Assembly (NCBI RefSeq): GCF_058153355.1
Contig: NZ_CM177019.1
Strand: one strand, 5' to 3'
Length of the DNA: 64,000 nt
The translations under genes and the position numbers were made by a program. Positions 16,843 to 64,000 of this stretch are shown piece by piece; the stretch's first letter is position 1, and the number at the start of each line of letters is the position of its first letter. The notes under the pieces were generated by a model, which saw nothing but the letters and a program-made list of their open reading frames with translations, was not told the origin of the DNA and ran no database searches.

Positions 16843-17094
<252 letters not shown>

Positions 17095-17098
17095 CTAA

Positions 17099-19456
<2,358 letters not shown>

Positions 19457-21699: not shown

Positions 21700-21768
21700 A
21701 TAATTGCATTATGCCCCGTACTTTTGTACGGGGTTTGTACTCTGTATTCGTAACCAAGGGGTCAGCTC

Positions 21769-22299
21769 GTGACAACTATAGTAAGCGTACGCCGTAACGG
21801 CCATGTGGTCATCGCTGGTGATGGTCAGGCCACGTTGGGCAATACCGTAATGAAAGGTAACGTGAAAAAGGTCCGCCGTCTGTACAACGACAAAGTCATC
21901 GCGGGCTTTGCGGGCGGTACTGCGGATGCTTTTACGCTGTTCGAACTGTTTGAACGTAAACTGGAAATGCATCAGGGCCATCTGGTCAAAGCCGCCGTTG
22001 AACTGGCAAAAGACTGGCGTACCGATCGCATGTTACGCAAACTTGAAGCACTGCTGGCAGTCGCGGATGAAACCGCTTCACTGATCATCACCGGTAACGG
22101 TGACGTGGTGCAGCCAGAAAACGATCTTATTGCTATCGGCTCCGGCGGCCCTTACGCCCAGGCTGCGGCGCGCGCGCTGTTAGAAAACACTGAACTAAGC
22201 GCCCGTGAAATTGCTGAAAAGGCGTTGGATATTGCAGGCGACATTTGCATCTATACCAACCATTTCCACACCATCGAAGAATTAAGCTACAAAGCGTAA
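21769..22299 (+). CDS. hslV: ATP-dependent protease subunit HslV
   Basis: 176-aa ORF; the T2 (N-terminal Thr nucleophile) follows the initiator: [20 protein letters not shown]. Confidence 0.95.
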
Positions 22300-25469: not shown

Positions 25470-26186
25470 ATGAGATACGTTATCTTATTAATACTATGGA
25501 TAATAACTACTTTTCTTAGTCATCTTCAGCACAGCAACCTACTGTCTGGAGATCCTGGCATGGTTGGCGAGTATATCGGTTCAGTATTTCTGGGGCCGTT
25601 GTTACTTCCCGTGCTTGTGTCAGGTATTCTGTGCGCATTTATTAAAAAAAAACGTAACTTCGCCAGTTTTACTCGCGGGTGCTGTTGGGTATTGGGAATC
25701 CTGCTTTTATCCAAAGTCGGCAATACGTTTCGTATGTTTACCCCGTGGCAATATACCTTTGAGAATGCTGCGATAACCGTGACTATCCCGAACCGACACT
25801 GGAATACGGTTTCCATCAGTACTAATAAAACCATTGATATAAGAAGTGAGGATAATAGCGTCTTCATTTCTGCTTTCCGCCTGCCCGCAGGACGTAGCGC
25901 CGATGACCCGCTGGAAGCGTTAAAGAAGAAGCAGCGAGACAATCTCAAGGATCAATACAATGAGGAAGCCTTCCAGTTTCATGATTGTAATGCCAAACAT
26001 TTCACCTGTAAGTATCAGGATGTGTTGATAAATTTTGATGGTCAGCAGAAAAGAACCATCAGTGTTTATCTTGAAGACACCCCCAGGGCTGTGGGGATCA
26101 TTGCATTAATGGCGCCAGATACGGCAGATAAATATCGCCAACAGGCGATGGAGATTATGCTTTCCGCTAAAAATGCAGTGAAGTAA
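25470..26186 (+). CDS. hypothetical membrane protein in an AT-rich insertion
   Basis: 238-aa ORF with ATG 6-7 nt after AGGGA. Two to three N-terminal hydrophobic helices, then a soluble domain of about 150 aa. No family recognised. Upstream 250 bp is strongly AT-rich. Confidence 0.55.
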   Translation: MRYVILLILWIITTFLSHLQHSNLLSGDPGMVGEYIGSVFLGPLLLPVLVSGILCAFIKKKRNFASFTRGCCWVLGILLLSKVGNTFRMFTPWQYTFENAAITVTIPNRHWNTVSISTNKTIDIRSEDNSVFISAFRLPAGRSADDPLEALKKKQRDNLKDQYNEEAFQFHDCNAKHFTCKYQDVLINFDGQQKRTISVYLEDTPRAVGIIALMAPDTADKYRQQAMEIMLSAKNAVK

Positions 26187-36411: not shown

Positions 36412-36510
36412 TGCCATATGCGGCGCGAACGCCTTATACGGCCTACAAAAGTTTGCAAATTCAATAAATTGCAGAATTCATGTAGGCCTGATAAGCGAAG
36501 CGCATCAGGC
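36412..36510. repeat. REP palindromic units, pfkA-sbp intergenic
   Basis: CCATATGCGGCGCGAACGCCTTATACGGCCTACA and TGTAGGCCTGATAAGCGAAGCGCATCAGGC. Confidence 0.8.
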
Positions 36511-38612: not shown

Positions 38613-38693
38613 AAATACTCCCGCTATCAACTGACGGTAGTATAACGGAAGCAAATCATCTGCAATGCATTAAGCAGTAGGCAAATTGAGGAT

Positions 38694-38760
38694 AAAAAAA
38701 AACCCCACATCATGTGGGGGAAGACAGGGATGGTGTCTATGGCAAGGAAAACAGGGTTTA
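38694..38760 (-). ncRNA. cpxQ: cpxP 3'-UTR-derived small RNA region (CpxQ) with intrinsic terminator
   Basis: Immediately 3' of the cpxP stop. Terminator hairpin CCCCACATCATGTGGGG followed by a nine-T run on the minus strand. CpxQ is known to be processed from this 3' UTR; the 5' end is not determinable from sequence alone. Confidence 0.5.
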
Positions 38761-39261
38761 CTACTGGGAACGTGAGTTGCTACTACTCAATAGCTTCAAC
38801 GATGAACTTTTTTGCCATTGCGTCACGTCGCGCAACTGCTCCATTCGTTGTTGATGTTTCTCGTTTAAAACCGCTTGCTGCTCCGGCGTTAACAGGCGAT
38901 ACATTTGGTTGCGGACTTTTGCCATCTCAACCTGACGAGCAATTTGCTCATTCGCCATTTTTTCTGCCTGTGCGCGCACAGCGTTTTCATCAAAATTTTC
39001 TGCGGTGACAAGGCGATGCATTGTCTCCAGTTCGCTAACATTAACAGGAGGCTGTTCGTGCCGGGCCTGTTGCATAAGATCTCGCATCTGCTGACGCTGA
39101 TGTTCGGTTAAACTTATGCCGTCGAACATATGGCTCTGCGTACTGCGCTGCGTAAGTTCTTCACCCGGATGCCAGTTATCGCCTGAACCGACTTCAGCAG
39201 CGTGGCTTAATGAACTGACTGCCAGCGTTGAGGCCATGACGGCAGCGGTAACTATGCGCAT
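38761..39261 (-). CDS. cpxP: periplasmic stress adaptor CpxP
   Basis: Native start [24 protein letters not shown], 166 aa; two LTxxQ motifs. Confidence 0.95.
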
Positions 39262-39340
39262 CATTTGCTCCCAAAATCTTTCTGTCGCGATTCAACGATA
39301 GAGAGTTTACGATTCAGGCTGCAAACATGCGTCAGGGGGT

Positions 39341-39355
39341 GTAAAACAACGTAAA
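39341..39355. promoter_or_regulatory. CpxR-P binding box in the cpxP / cpxRA divergent control region
   Basis: GTAAA-ACAAC-GTAAA, an exact match to the GTAAA(N5)GTAAA CpxR consensus. Confidence 0.8.
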
Positions 39356-39410
39356 GTCATGGATTAGCGACGTCTGATGACGTAATTTCTGCCTCGGAGG
39401 TATTTAAACA

Positions 39411-40109
39411 ATGAATAAAATCCTGTTAGTTGATGATGACCGAGAGCTGACTTCCCTGTTAAAGGAGCTGCTCGAGATGGAAGGCTTCAACGTGATTGTT
39501 GCCCACGATGGGGAGCAGGCGCTTGATCTTCTGGACGACAGCATTGATTTACTTTTGCTTGATGTCATGATGCCGAAGAAAAATGGTATCGACACATTAA
39601 AAGCACTTCGCCAGACACACCAGACGCCTGTCATTATGTTGACGGCGCGCGGCAGTGAACTTGATCGCGTTCTCGGCCTTGAGCTGGGCGCAGATGACTA
39701 TCTCCCGAAACCGTTTAATGATCGTGAGCTGGTGGCACGTATTCGCGCGATCCTGCGCCGTTCGCACTGGAGCGAGCAACAGCAAAACAACGACAACGGT
39801 TCACCGACACTGGAAGTTGATGCCTTAGTGCTGAATCCAGGCCGTCAGGAAGCCAGCTTCGACGGGCAAACGCTGGAGTTAACCGGCACTGAGTTTACCC
39901 TGCTCTATTTGCTGGCACAGCATCTGGGTCAGGTGGTTTCCCGTGAGCATTTAAGCCAGGAAGTGCTGGGCAAACGCCTGACGCCTTTCGACCGCGCTAT
40001 CGATATGCACATTTCCAACCTGCGTCGTAAACTGCCGGATCGTAAAGATGGTCACCCGTGGTTTAAAACCTTGCGTGGTCGCGGCTATCTGATGGTTTCT
40101 GCTTCATGA
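39411..40109 (+). CDS. cpxR: envelope stress response regulator CpxR (OmpR family)
   Basis: 232 aa; receiver domain (LLVDDD...D51 region) plus winged helix; stop overlaps cpxA start (ATGA). Confidence 0.96.
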   Translation: MNKILLVDDDRELTSLLKELLEMEGFNVIVAHDGEQALDLLDDSIDLLLLDVMMPKKNGIDTLKALRQTHQTPVIMLTARGSELDRVLGLELGADDYLPKPFNDRELVARIRAILRRSHWSEQQQNNDNGSPTLEVDALVLNPGRQEASFDGQTLELTGTEFTLLYLLAQHLGQVVSREHLSQEVLGKRLTPFDRAIDMHISNLRRKLPDRKDGHPWFKTLRGRGYLMVSAS

Positions 40110-41479
40110 TAGGCAGCTTAACCGCGCGCATCTTCGCCATCTTCTGGCTGACGCTGGCGCTGGTGTTGATGTTGGTTTTGATGTTACCCAAGCTCGATTC
40201 ACGCCAGATGACCGAGCTTCTGGATAGCGAACAGCGTCAGGGGCTGATGATTGAGCAGCATGTCGAAGCGGAACTGGCGAACGATCCGCCCAACGATTTA
40301 ATGTGGTGGCGGCGTCTGTTCCGGGCGATTGATAAGTGGGCACCGCCAGGACAGCGTTTGTTATTGGTGACCACCGAGGGCCGCGTGATCGGCGCTGAAC
40401 GCAGCGAAATGCAGATCATTCGTAACTTTATTGGTCAGGCCGATAACGCCGATCACCCGCAAAAGAAAAAGTATGGCCGCGTGGAACTGGTCGGTCCGTT
40501 CTCCGTGCGTGATGGCGAAGATAATTACCAACTGTATCTGATTCGTCCGGCCAGCAGTTCTCAATCCGATTTCATTAACTTACTGTTTGACCGCCCGCTA
40601 TTACTGCTGATTGTGACTATGTTGGTCAGTACACCGTTGCTGTTGTGGTTGGCCTGGAGTCTGGCAAAACCGGCGCGTAAGCTGAAAAACGCTGCCGATG
40701 AAGTTGCCCAGGGGAACTTACGCCAGCATCCGGAACTGGAAGCGGGGCCACAGGAATTTCTTGCCGCTGGTGCCAGTTTTAACCAGATGGTGACCGCGCT
40801 GGAGCGCATGATGACCTCCCAGCAGCGCCTCCTTTCTGATATCTCTCACGAACTGCGCACGCCACTGACGCGCCTGCAACTGGGTACGGCGTTATTGCGC
40901 CGTCGTAGTGGTGAAAGCAAGGAACTGGAGCGTATTGAAACCGAAGCCCAGCGTCTGGACAGCATGATCAACGACCTGTTGGTGATGTCACGTAATCAGC
41001 AGAAAAACGCGCTGGTGAGCGAGACATTGAAAGCTAACCAGTTGTGGGGTGAAGTGCTGGATAACGCGGCGTTCGAAGCGGAACAAATGGGCAAGTCGTT
41101 TACGGTTAACTTCCCGCCTGGGCCGTGGCCTCTGTATGGCAACCCGAACGCTCTGGAAAGTGCGCTGGAAAACATTGTTCGTAATGCCCTGCGTTATTCC
41201 CATACGAAGATTGAGGTGGGCTTTGCGGTAGATAAAGATGGTATCACCATTACGGTGGACGACGATGGTCCTGGCGTTAGCCCGGAAGATCGCGAGCAGA
41301 TTTTCCGTCCGTTCTATCGCACCGATGAAGCGCGCGATCGTGAATCTGGCGGTACGGGCTTAGGGCTGGCGATTGTCGAAACAGCTATCCAGCAGCACCG
41401 TGGTTGGGTGAAGGCAGAAGACAGCCCGCTGGGCGGTTTGCGGCTGGTGATTTGGCTGCCGCTGTATAAGCGGAGTTAA
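40106..41479 (+). CDS. cpxA: envelope stress sensor histidine kinase CpxA
   Basis: 457 aa; two TM segments, HAMP, H-box (SHELRTPLT), ATPase motifs. Confidence 0.96.
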   Translation: MIGSLTARIFAIFWLTLALVLMLVLMLPKLDSRQMTELLDSEQRQGLMIEQHVEAELANDPPNDLMWWRRLFRAIDKWAPPGQRLLLVTTEGRVIGAERSEMQIIRNFIGQADNADHPQKKKYGRVELVGPFSVRDGEDNYQLYLIRPASSSQSDFINLLFDRPLLLLIVTMLVSTPLLLWLAWSLAKPARKLKNAADEVAQGNLRQHPELEAGPQEFLAAGASFNQMVTALERMMTSQQRLLSDISHELRTPLTRLQLGTALLRRRSGESKELERIETEAQRLDSMINDLLVMSRNQQKNALVSETLKANQLWGEVLDNAAFEAEQMGKSFTVNFPPGPWPLYGNPNALESALENIVRNALRYSHTKIEVGFAVDKDGITITVDDDGPGVSPEDREQIFRPFYRTDEARDRESGGTGLGLAIVETAIQQHRGWVKAEDSPLGGLRLVIWLPLYKRS

Positions 41480-41489
41480 ACTCCGCATT

Positions 41490-41576
<87 letters not shown>

Positions 41577-41584
41577 TCCGGGGG

Positions 41585-42259
41585 TTATTTTCCCCACAAC
41601 CGGCGGGAAAAATCTTCGATCTTGCCGCTCAGTCGGCGCTTCTGCATCGTTCGCGTCCAGCTTTTCGATAGTCCGGCTGCGGAAAGCAAACGGTGATACT
41701 GCTCATCATCAAACGGCATATGCCATGCGATGGCGGCAGCCTCCTGCACGGTCACATCACTGACACGGGAAACCAACTCCAGCGGCGCATCAGCAGATAC
41801 CAACCCTGGCGCAATCACGCTATACAACCACCCCACTTTACCCGTGTTTTGCATCAACTGCGCTATATCGCTGATATCAAAATGGTAATTGAGTTTATAG
41901 CAAGGGGAGCGTGGCTGGCTGACCTGAATTAATGCCTCTCCCCAGCGGAAAATATCGCCAATATAAACATTACTTTCCGTCAGACCGTCGGTTGAGAGAT
42001 TTTCGCCAAACGCAGGCGCAACAAACAACTCCGCCTGTTCCGGAAATTCCCGCGCCCAGTAGAGATAGTGCTCACGAGGATAATGACACAGCGCTCTGTC
42101 TGGCCCGCCGTGAACCTTCTTCTCCGCCTGCTCGTCACCTTCCAGCCCCAGCTCCGTCAGCATCAACTCACCATCAACCTGGATTTTGGCAATTGCGCTG
42201 GGTTTGCCTTCGGGATAAGCCTGAATCTTGCCCGTGTATACATCAACCGGATATCGCAT
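41585..42259 (-). CDS. yiiM: MOSC-domain protein YiiM
   Basis: Native start MRYPVDVYTGKIQAYPEGKP (ATG 42259), 224 aa. Confidence 0.9.
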   Translation of the reverse strand: MRYPVDVYTGKIQAYPEGKPSAIAKIQVDGELMLTELGLEGDEQAEKKVHGGPDRALCHYPREHYLYWAREFPEQAELFVAPAFGENLSTDGLTESNVYIGDIFRWGEALIQVSQPRSPCYKLNYHFDISDIAQLMQNTGKVGWLYSVIAPGLVSADAPLELVSRVSDVTVQEAAAIAWHMPFDDEQYHRLLSAAGLSKSWTRTMQKRRLSGKIEDFSRRLWGK

Positions 42260-51629: not shown

Positions 51630-53024
51630 TCAGAAGAAGTATTTAAAGCGAACGCGTGCGCCGTAACGGTCATCAGTATCATCACCGTGTTTTTTATCAC
51701 CGTCGCTATCCAGAATGGAGTAATAAGTACCAAGGTAAATATTAAAGTTCTCCATATCCATCACATTAGCGAACTGATAAGACGCATGAATGGTGTGAAT
51801 GGTGTACGTCCCTTCATCATCAATCCAGCAGTCGTTATCACAAACTACACCGCTGAATTCATCAATCTTATTGTGCGCGTAGATATAACCCAGCTCGAAA
51901 CGTTTCCACAGCGCGTTAATCCCGGCAGTGAAATCTTTTTCATTATTAGCATCTAAATAGGCGGTATTAAGATTAACCACGACGCCATTTTCCGGATCCG
52001 TTTTCAGGCCATTCCAGGTCATGCTCATACCATAGCCGGTACGATCGGACTGATCGACAAAATTACCCTTGCTATCGGTATAACCATAAGCATTATTTAC
52101 TACGTTCGCTTCCATCGCTGCGGAAACGGTGAATTCTTCCGTCGGCGACCAGGCAATTACCGGACGCAGATAAGCAACATTTTTCTGCTGCTTCATATCG
52201 CGTCCATGATAATTACCGTCATTATATAAAGATGTTCCGTCTTCAAGTAACGTGTTTAATTCAAAATACCAGTTATCGAGTTGTTTGCTGACGAGGAAAT
52301 TACCGCCAGCGTTAGAGCGCCCGCGGCCCTCTTTCATCATATAGATATAACCGCTGCCATCGTCATAAAGATCGTTCGCAGTATTACCGGAATGTTCAAC
52401 AAAGGTATCCTGATTCAGCGGGAACATATCGTAGGCTTCAAAACGGCCTACTTTGACCTTCCAGTCGTTTTCTTTGCCAAAGAAGAATACCGCATCATCG
52501 ATATTTACTGAACCGTGCATATCCCCCAGCGGTTGTGCGGAGAACCCGGCGAAATAACCATTATCCAGTTTTCGCATACCATCAAAACCTAACAGAATAC
52601 GACCATTGAGATTCCACTGTTCATTAGTGGGATCGCTATTCACATCAGCGTTGGTCATTGCCAGCAGGCCATGATTACTTTCCGCATCCATATTAAATTC
52701 TACGTCGCCGTAGATTTTTAAATCGCCATAACCTGAAAGCAAAAGATTAGGTGAGGTGGCATTTTTCTTTGCAGATTCCGCCGTTGTCTGTCCATTTACC
52801 GGCGTATTGCCCTGGGCAGCCTTAATTTCGCGGATCTCAGCGGCTTGTTGTGTCTGCAGCTGTTTTACCTGCCCCTCTGCTTTTGCTGCCCGCATTTCTG
52901 CCGCTTCCAGGCGTTCTTCCAGCAATGCCATGCGTTGTTCCAGCGTTAAATGCTGTGTTTTTGCCATTCCGGTACTACATGCCAATAATAAACCGATGGC
53001 TAAAGATAATGTCGATTTTTTCAT
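51630..53024 (-). CDS. putative outer-membrane carbohydrate-selective porin (OprB/ScrY-like: N-terminal coiled coil plus beta-barrel)
   Basis: 464-aa ORF with signal peptide MKKSTLSLAIGLLLACSTGMA, about 50 aa of coiled coil (LEQRMALLEERLEAAEMRAAKAEGQVKQLQ), an aromatic/Gly-rich alternating region and C-terminal ...RFKYFF typical of OM beta-barrels. Family assignment is inferred. Confidence 0.6.
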   Translation of the reverse strand: MKKSTLSLAIGLLLACSTGMAKTQHLTLEQRMALLEERLEAAEMRAAKAEGQVKQLQTQQAAEIREIKAAQGNTPVNGQTTAESAKKNATSPNLLLSGYGDLKIYGDVEFNMDAESNHGLLAMTNADVNSDPTNEQWNLNGRILLGFDGMRKLDNGYFAGFSAQPLGDMHGSVNIDDAVFFFGKENDWKVKVGRFEAYDMFPLNQDTFVEHSGNTANDLYDDGSGYIYMMKEGRGRSNAGGNFLVSKQLDNWYFELNTLLEDGTSLYNDGNYHGRDMKQQKNVAYLRPVIAWSPTEEFTVSAAMEANVVNNAYGYTDSKGNFVDQSDRTGYGMSMTWNGLKTDPENGVVVNLNTAYLDANNEKDFTAGINALWKRFELGYIYAHNKIDEFSGVVCDNDCWIDDEGTYTIHTIHASYQFANVMDMENFNIYLGTYYSILDSDGDKKHGDDTDDRYGARVRFKYFF

Positions 53025-61945: not shown

Positions 61946-64000
61946 ATGCAGGTCAGCAGAAGGCAGTTCTTTAAGATCTGCGCTGGCGGTATGGCAGGCA
62001 CCACGGCAGCGGCACTGGGTTTTGCACCCAGCGTAGCACTCGCGGAAACCCGGCAGTATAAACTGCTGCGCACCCGCGAAACCCGTAATACCTGCACCTA
62101 TTGTTCCGTAGGCTGTGGGCTGTTGATGTACAGCCTCGGTGACGGAGCAAAAAACGCCAAAGCATCTATCTTCCATATCGAAGGTGACCCGGATCACCCG
62201 GTCAACCGCGGTGCACTTTGTCCCAAAGGCGCTGGCCTGGTGGATTTCATCCACTCCGAAAGCCGTCTGAAGTTTCCGGAATACCGTGCCCCTGGTTCTG
62301 ATAAATGGCAGCAAATCAGTTGGGAAGAGGCGTTTGATCGCATTGCCAAACTGATGAAAGAAGACCGCGATGCTAACTACATTGCGCAAAACGCCGAAGG
62401 CGTGACTGTTAACCGCTGGCTCTCCACCGGGATGCTGTGTGCTTCCGCGTCGAGTAACGAAACCGGCTATTTAACGCAAAAATTCTCCCGCGCGCTGGGT
62501 ATGCTCGCGGTCGACAACCAGGCGCGTGTCTGACACGGACCAACGGTAGCAAGTCTTGCTCCAACATTTGGTCGCGGTGCGATGACCAACCACTGGGTCG
62601 ACATCAAGAACGCCAACCTCGTCGTGGTGATGGGCGGTAACGCCGCTGAAGCTCACCCGGTCGGGTTCCGCTGGGCGATGGAAGCCAAAATTCACAACGG
62701 CGCGAAGCTGATTGTGATCGATCCTCGCTTTACGCGTACGGCGGCGGTGGCTGACTACTATGCCCCTATTCGTTCCGGTACTGACATTGCTTTCCTGTCA
62801 GGCGTATTGCTGTACCTGCTGAACAATGAAAAATTCAACCGCGAATACACCGAAGCCTATACCAACGCCAGCCTGATCGTGCGTGAGGATTACGGCTTTG
62901 AAGATGGCCTGTTCACCGGCTACGACGCGGAAAAACGCAAGTACGATAAATCCTCCTGGACCTACGAGCTGGACGAAAACGGCTTCGCCAAACGCGATAC
63001 CACGCTGCAACATCCGCGCTGCGTGTGGAACTTGCTGAAACAGCACGTTTCCCGTTATACGCCAGATGTGGTTGAAAACATCTGTGGCACGCCGAAAGAC
63101 GCGTTCCTGAAAGTCTGCGAATACATCGCAGAGACCAGTGCTCACGATAAAACTGCCTCGTTCCTTTACGCGCTCGGCTGGACGCAACACTCCGTTGGTG
63201 CGCAGAACATTCGTACGATGGCGATGATCCAGCTACTGCTCGGCAATATGGGGATGGCAGGCGGCGGCGTTAACGCCCTGCGCGGTCACTCCAACATTCA
63301 GGGGCTGACGGACCTGGGGCTGCTGTCGCAGAGCCTGCCAGGTTACATGACGCTGCCAAGCGAGAAGCAGACCGATCTGCAAACCTACCTTGCCGCCAAC
63401 ACGCCAAAACCACTGCTGGAAGGCCAGGTTAACTACTGGGGCAATTACCCGAAATTCTTCGTCTCCATGATGAAGGCCTTCTTTGGTGATAAAGCGACGG
63501 CAGAAAACAGCTGGGGCTTTGACTGGTTGCCGAAGTGGGATAAAGGCTACGACGTCCTGCAATACTTCGAGATGATGAAAGAGGGCAAGGTCAATGGCTA
63601 TATCTGCCAGGGCTTTAACCCTGTTGCCTCATTCCCGAACAAAAACAAAGTGATCGGTTGTCTGTCGAAACTGAAGTTCCTCGTCACTATCGACCCGCTG
63701 AACACTGAAACCTCTAACTTCTGGCAGAACCACGGTGAGCTGAACGAAGTGGACTCGTCGAAGATCCAGACCGAAGTGTTCCGTCTGCCATCGACCTGCT
63801 TCGCGGAAGAGAACGGTTCAATCGTTAACTCCGGTCGCTGGTTGCAGTGGCACTGGAAAGGTGCGGACGCCCCAGGGATTGCGCTGACTGATGGCGAGAT
63901 CCTCTCCGGTATCTTCCTGCGCTTGCGCAAGATGTACGCCGAACAGGGTGGCGCGAACCCGGACCAGGTGCTGAACATGACCTGGAACTACGCCATCCCG
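61946..64000 (+). CDS. fdoG: formate dehydrogenase-O major subunit (selenoprotein), 3'-truncated by window end
   Basis: Tat signal MQVSRRQFFKICAGGMAGTTAAALG; N-terminal Fe-S Cys cluster (CTYCSVGCG). In-frame TGA at 62531-62533, after which the frame continues without stops (HGPTVASLAPTFGRGAMTNHW...) to the window end. Confidence 0.92.
62531..62533 (+). other. selenocysteine (UGA recoding) codon of fdoG
   Basis: In-frame TGA at the conserved Sec position (codon 196), with conserved molybdopterin-enzyme sequence on both sides. Confidence 0.85.
62534..62573 (+). other. putative SECIS stem-loop downstream of the Sec codon
   Basis: Outer arms GACCAA/TTGGTC and inner arms AGCA/TGCT can pair in the roughly 40 nt immediately 3' of the UGA, where bacterial SECIS elements lie; the fold was not computed. 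Confidence 0.45.

Follow-up and report, generated by a model that had tools for sequence, protein, structure and literature searches.

The GTAAA-N5-GTAAA consensus of CpxR was reportedly described by De Wulf et al. in 2002, and the view of CpxQ as a 3' UTR-derived, Hfq-dependent small RNA (sRNA) of the Cpx response is said to go back to Chao and Vogel and to Grabowicz et al. in 2016. The consensus is also given as GTAAA(N5)GTAAA in PMC8831704. In Salmonella and Escherichia coli, CpxQ derives from the cpxP 3' UTR (PMC4817254); RNase E and Hfq generate it from the cpxP mRNA, and conservation is higher in this region than in the cpxP coding sequence (PMC9438474). As the seed, the CpxQ 5' end pairs with nhaB and cfa (PMC6755755, PMC10250213), and CpxQ represses the mRNAs of inner-membrane proteins and skp (PMC4817254, PMC9438474, PMC6755755, PMC10250213). 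Another sRNA, Hrs1 of Erwinia amylovora, is encoded between cpxP and fieF, shares their strand, and ends in a Rho-independent terminator; it is Hfq-dependent and abundant, was confirmed by Northern blot, and was called Erwinia-specific by the source paper (PMC4070566). The attachment site of phage Wphi is given as 'cpxP-fieF', at MG1655 coordinate 4104392 (PMC3032704, PMC3448106). Here we analyzed the corresponding locus in a 64,000-nucleotide stretch of DNA (named the window), and conclude that it is almost certainly the canonical E. coli Cpx output module, composed of the CpxR box, cpxP, and CpxQ.

The cpxP–cpxR control region and its genes

The locus belongs to an E. coli chromosome. An 821-nt query across it reaches at least 95% identity in 5,425 of the 5,426 complete E. 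coli genomes, and the matching genomes annotate fieF, cpxP, and cpxR under this query. Based on the open reading frame (ORF) list, the 166-residue periplasmic Cpx modulator CpxP is encoded on the minus strand (38761..39261, stop codon at 38763..38761), and cpxR (39411-40109) and cpxA (40106-41479) are encoded on the plus strand; in the ORF map, pfkA and fieF share the minus strand with cpxP. The cpxP gene shows one synonymous change from K-12, and the CpxP protein is identical. The amino-acid sequence of CpxR also equals that of K-12, and CpxA is full length (457 aa), with no internal stop and with three substitutions relative to K-12 (I308L, S315G, and L332F). The intact Cpx circuit proposed by the first-pass annotation is thereby borne out at the level of all three proteins, but its placement next to accessory envelope genes is not: the neighbors are the core genes fieF, pfkA, yiiM, kdgT, and sodA, and the nearest accessory gene found, for a RafY-type glycoporin, is about 12 kb away.

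This glycoporin gene (464 aa, 51630-53024, minus strand) is located between rhaM and frvA and matches Pfam Porin_8 with an E-value of 2.8e-154. It is found with at least 80% coverage in 2,556 of the 5,426 complete E. coli genomes, and some copies reside on plasmids. A tract at around 40580-42000, covering the 3' half of cpxA, a REP element, and yiiM, diverges from K-12 by 5-8% at the nucleotide level, whereas cpxP and cpxR diverge by no more than 1%. Within the tract, the 3' half of cpxA has 59 differences, with I308L, S315G, and L332F as the amino-acid changes, and the tract is probably a recombination tract. Elsewhere in the window, a 238-residue ORF lies between rraA and zapB (25470-26186, plus strand), without a Pfam match and with an N-terminus that looks hydrophobic; the near-identical strain R32_14_1F carries a shorter form of 627 nt under the label 'hypothetical protein'.

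The 149-nt spacer between cpxP and cpxR shows no difference from the E. coli K-12 spacer and holds GTAAAacaacGTAAA at 39341-39355 (plus-strand spelling; no strand is assigned to the element itself), which is an exact GTAAA-N5-GTAAA and the predicted recognition box of CpxR~P. The exact site that had been claimed for this divergent cpxP/cpxRA region is found precisely there, with no difference from the consensus, and it is the sole exact match in the 64 kb when both strands are searched. Shuffling gives an expectation of 0.16 exact matches per window and at least one match in 15 of 100 shuffles, so the presence of one exact box in a window is unremarkable in itself. When one mismatch is allowed, the window contains seven sites versus 3.5 expected; this enrichment is not significant, and the six near-matches elsewhere in the window were left uninterpreted for that reason. 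We judge the box to be non-random because of its place inside the cpxP–cpxR spacer and its conservation. Among orthologous loci from other species, 59 of 61 carry an exact TTTAC-N5-TTTAC, which is the same box as read on the cpxP strand, about 91-104 nt ahead of the first cpxP ATG. For the two exceptions, over-long ORFs (230 and 259 aa) had been picked, and the 300-nt search window was probably misplaced. Collectively, the features that define a CpxR box in sequence, namely the tandem GTAAA, the 5-nt gap, the upstream position, and the conservation among orthologues, are all present in this predicted element.

Alignment of 67 distinct promoter regions revealed that conservation continues after the CpxR box in the blocks CTGACGc..GTTTgCAGC and gTAnAcT. 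From this conservation, TAAACT at 39309..39304 (minus strand) is the putative -10 element of cpxP, which would place the center of the CpxR box about 50 nt upstream of the start site. No more than 44 bp separate the native cpxP start site from the ATG (Grabowicz 2016, PMC4817254), and the placement of the putative -10 element agrees with this. The conserved CTGACG at 39330-39335 is situated in the -35 area; at 20 nt from the -10 element, it is not assignable as a clean cpxP -35 element.

CpxQ in the cpxP 3' UTR

The cpxP 3' UTR extends over 67 nt on the minus strand (38760..38694). In the K-12 MG1655 record, a 58-nt ncRNA, cpxQ (b4716, NC_000913.3 4106330-4106387), is annotated 9 nt past the cpxP stop codon. 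Base-for-base alignment with b4716 places cpxQ, the 58-nt Hfq-dependent sRNA, at 38694..38751 on the minus strand of the window (UUUUCCUUGCCAUAGACACCAUCCCUGUCUUCCCCCACAUGAUGUGGGGUUUUUUUUU), and the K-12 annotation likewise places a 9-nt spacer, UAAACCCUG (38752..38760, minus strand), between the cpxP stop codon and the CpxQ 5' end. The first-pass annotation had regarded the whole 3' UTR (about 38694-38760) as the source of CpxQ; its position and strand hold, whereas CpxQ proper occupies only 38751..38694. The alignment to annotated CpxQ that it had suggested as a check showed no divergence in the seed, with positions 1-41 equal to K-12 b4716. Over the full length, 56 of 58 nt are identical, and both differences fall in the terminator hairpin: position 42, a loop base (38710), is A versus C in K-12, and position 50 (38702), the closing G of the K-12 stem, is U. 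The loop A is the majority state of E. coli, with K-12 carrying the C. In locus, strand, place after the cpxP stop, 58-nt extent, and architecture, the window copy is the same as the CpxQ of K-12 and its Salmonella counterpart.

The predicted fold consists of a free 5' end, a 5-bp hairpin, the terminator (positions 33-49), and a final U9. The single-stranded 5' end, UUUUCCUUGCCAU (positions 1-13, 38739..38751, minus strand), corresponds to the published seed region, is unpaired in the predicted fold, and equals that of K-12. The small internal hairpin (positions 14-30, 38722..38738, minus strand) pairs AGACA with UGUCU by 5 bp around a 7-nt loop in both the minimum-free-energy and the centroid folds. 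The terminator scan identified a Rho-independent stem-loop shared by cpxP and CpxQ, CCCCACAUGAUGUGGGG at 38703..38719 on the minus strand (CCCCACATCATGTGGGG in plus-strand spelling, the same hairpin), which has 7 bp, five of them G-C, and a 3-nt UGA loop. It is followed by a U9 tract as the terminator tail (38694..38702, minus strand), which is expected to be the Hfq-binding 3' end. The strong intrinsic terminator anticipated at the end of the cpxP 3' UTR is indeed this hairpin plus U9 at 38719..38694. The fold z-score of the whole UTR is only -1.4, so the fold energy alone is not decisive, and the context and comparative data carry the case for CpxQ.

The junction CUG|UUUU at the CpxQ 5' end is the presumed RNase E processing site, and its context is identical to K-12. 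On the minus strand, the promoter scan detected no sigma-70-like promoter immediately ahead of CpxQ, including inside cpxP, which fits biogenesis by RNase E processing. By its location, its homology including the seed, and its terminator with a U-tail, the 3' UTR segment is identified as CpxQ, and every testable feature that defines CpxQ and the CpxR box in sequence is present in the window.

The terminator of the window belongs to a minority allele. Three alleles of the 79-nt 3' UTR segment were counted in the 5,426 complete E. coli genomes: one with loop A and five G (4,106 genomes), the K-12 allele with loop C (893 genomes), and the window allele with loop A and the last G changed to U (253 genomes, 4.7%). 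The window allele is one base apart from the majority allele, and its stem falls one pair short of that in 92% of the genomes counted (7 bp and U9, versus 8 bp and U8 in K-12). The hairpin energy is -10.7 kcal/mol, versus -13.8 kcal/mol for K-12 and the majority allele. The change of the closing G to U is expected to be functionally neutral, though the allele could slightly alter the CpxQ 3' end by shortening the stem and lengthening the U-tail available to Hfq.

Conservation across Enterobacterales and the Hrs1 family

We scanned one genome per species with the pattern CCTTGCCA-N7-10-TCCCTGTCT and obtained at least 120 loci. True cpxQ loci among the matches listed come from 85 species, and the rest are chance matches in unrelated phyla. 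The genera with cpxQ are Escherichia, Citrobacter, Enterobacter, Klebsiella, Pantoea, Erwinia, Serratia, Yersinia, Dickeya, Pectobacterium, Edwardsiella, Proteus, Morganella, Providencia, Xenorhabdus, Photorhabdus, and Arsenophonus. Because 17 core bases are fixed by the pattern, their conservation is circular, and the independent evidence is provided by the gap, the flanks, and the terminator only. The 9-nt gap left free by the pattern reads TAGACACCA in 83 of the 85 loci among the matches listed, and the 5' U-run of CpxQ is present in all 85. The last 45 nt of the cpxP coding sequence vary freely among the same loci.

The terminators of the 85 listed species comprise 49 different sequences, all of which form G+C-rich hairpins of -8.8 to -17.1 kcal/mol followed by T6-T9; the window hairpin, with its -10.7 kcal/mol, is inside this range. 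Across the 87 loci scored for T-run length (the 85 listed species, the window, and K-12), the run has eight T in 71 loci, nine in 8, seven in 7, and six in 1. The terminator hairpins were folded one by one, without column-based covariation, because stem lengths differ between species, and the small internal hairpin is invariant across the listed species, which makes covariation uninformative there. An invariant single-stranded body together with a freely compensating terminator is the pattern that a base-pairing sRNA should leave.

A scan of the whole window against Rfam 15 at gathering thresholds yielded nothing at the cpxP locus, and Rfam 15 has no CpxQ family. Below threshold, RF02628 (Hrs1) matches 38695-38766 on the plus strand with 41.6 bits, versus a gathering score of 56.4 (E = 1.8e-6); the other permissive matches at the locus, NsiR1 and RyhB among them, are at chance level (E > 0.9). 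Since Hrs1 is located between cpxP and fieF, on their strand and with a terminator, we find that Hrs1 is the CpxQ orthologue. Its core aligns with the window and occurs order-wide among the listed species, against the Erwinia-specific label. The RF02628 model opens with an A-run followed by a hairpin, which is a reverse-complemented terminator, and its above-threshold matches in Erwinia persicina and Pantoea fall on the opposite strand from cpxP/cpxQ; relative to the transcript, the model is reverse-complemented. Standard annotation by PGAP with Rfam leaves cpxQ unlabeled in E. coli genomes; except for the curated K-12 record, the RefSeq annotations examined do not list it, probably because Rfam has no CpxQ family and the Hrs1 model is both reversed and too narrow.

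Above-threshold Rfam matches occur elsewhere in the window. Those to naRNA4 (CssrE) and ES036 (CssrF), on the plus strand at 41494-41571 and 36448-36489, each sit in a short gap between genes (cpxA/yiiM and sbp/pfkA, respectively) and probably represent REP-type repeats, not dedicated sRNA genes. A SECIS element at 62528-62586 (plus strand), which probably belongs to fdoG, the formate dehydrogenase gene, the hslVU (ClpQY) heat-shock promoter element at 21714-21771 (plus strand), and the L31 (rpmE) ribosomal-protein leader at 17062-17114 (minus strand) are cis-elements expected in such a core region.

Phage attachment at cpxQ and the reading of the locus

When a short query was searched in the E. 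coli genomes, there were 672 more match places than matching records, and the extra matches include a 32-kb circular P2-like phage-plasmid. The segment at 38691..38737 (minus strand), which comprises the 3' 44 nt of cpxQ and 3 nt more, is identical at 46 of 47 nt to phage Wphi (AY135739.1, 22550-22596, between ogr and int) and also matches about 55 other phage records. Its single mismatch to the phage core is the G-to-U change of the window allele. The lysogen E. coli 81009 is arranged as cpxP-cpxQ-int...prophage...ogr-core-fieF, and the junction on the cpxP side has a complete cpxQ rebuilt from phage DNA. At least 11 of the 85 listed species, including Photorhabdus, Erwinia, Rosenbergiella, and Acerihabitans, have a homologue or remnant of the Wphi integrase 140-290 nt past the cpxQ terminator. 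By this identity and these junctions, the 47-nt segment is read as the attachment core (attB) of Wphi-type P2-like phages (Peduovirus), used for integration in other genomes; in contrast to the lysogen, the window has a single copy of the core, and its attB is empty. Our search of one paper library found no link between CpxQ and phage integration, and the sole paper containing both 'CpxQ' and 'integrase' names an integrase in its methods only.

A wider proposal, which we regard as unlikely when taken as a whole, is that P2-like phages across Enterobacterales carry the 3' 41-47 nt of cpxQ in a host-genus-matched form, that lysogeny would swap the host CpxQ terminator for the phage copy, and that the G-to-U change at 38702 would be more than neutral drift and tied to integration at the Wphi core. 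The window allele could be the scar of a past phage integration and excision, or it could be a variant that lowers the efficiency of phage integration.

Three other explanations of the 3' UTR segment were weighed against CpxQ. The hairpin and U-tract might serve solely as the cpxP terminator with no functional sRNA made here, for example if the G-to-U change harms termination or Hfq binding. Compared with the majority allele, the stem lacks one base pair and is weaker by 3.1 kcal/mol, and the allele is in the minority. However, the seed and body (positions 1-41) equal those of the functional K-12 CpxQ, the hairpin energy stays within the natural range of the listed species, the same hairpin occurs in Citrobacter werkmanii, the U-tract is longer and not shorter, and 253 independent complete genomes carry the allele, all of which makes this explanation very improbable. 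The segment might otherwise be conserved mainly as a Wphi-type attB, for phage targeting and not for RNA function, as suggested by the near-complete identity to the Wphi attP core and the numerous other matching phage records, the prophage sitting exactly at cpxQ in the lysogen, and the integrase genes or remnants after cpxQ in other species. Attachment is an additional role of the segment and not an alternative to the sRNA: the core covers the 3' 44 nt only, and the 14 nt at the 5' end outside it, which contain the seed, show the same invariance. It is typical of phages to target conserved RNA genes that already exist and to restore them, as the cpxP-side junction restores a complete cpxQ. 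The site is moreover unoccupied in the window and the function of CpxQ was shown experimentally (PMC4817254, PMC9438474, PMC6755755, PMC10250213), and we consider conservation for phage targeting to be extremely improbable as the main explanation.

An RNA transcribed from the plus strand, antisense to the cpxP 3' UTR, would follow from the strand of the RF02628 match. That family is itself reversed, as seen from the A-run before its hairpin and from its opposite-strand matches in Erwinia persicina and Pantoea. Furthermore, hrs1 lies on the cpxP/fieF strand with a Rho-independent terminator (PMC4070566), and the plus strand of the window has no T-run after the hairpin. The match was rejected as an orientation artefact of the Rfam seed, and a real antisense RNA is next to inconceivable here.

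The reading of the segment as CpxQ and of the locus as the canonical Cpx output module is thus retained. In this reading, the sequence, position, fold, conservation, and K-12 identity of the elements come from the present analysis; for the binding of CpxR and of Hfq, the cleavage by RNase E, and the repression of targets, we rely on published work or on inference. When the inner membrane or the periplasm is stressed, CpxA would phosphorylate CpxR, and CpxR~P would bind the tandem box at 39341-39355 and activate the cpxP promoter leftwards. CpxR~P also activates cpxRA, which lies rightwards here. The cpxP mRNA would end at the hairpin and U9 of the terminator (38719..38694), and RNase E, with Hfq, would cut it about 9 nt past the stop codon to release the 58-nt CpxQ (38751..38694). 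The single-stranded 5' end of CpxQ may then pair with the nhaB, skp, cfa, agp, ydjN, and fimA mRNAs and lead to their repression. A single transcript would in this way supply both arms, a periplasmic protein (CpxP) and a non-coding RNA (CpxQ).

In conclusion, the cpxP/CpxQ locus was already known, and the first-pass annotation recognized it correctly. As a discovery, this re-identification of a known system has little weight, with the textbook cpxP promoter and CpxQ being reproduced almost base for base, and it indicates that the Cpx locus is intact in this strain. For the family, a corrected, order-wide CpxQ model would mend thousands of annotations. In many genera, the half of cpxQ that holds the terminator doubles as an attachment site of P2-like phages, by which CpxQ joins the sRNA genes known to serve phages in this way.
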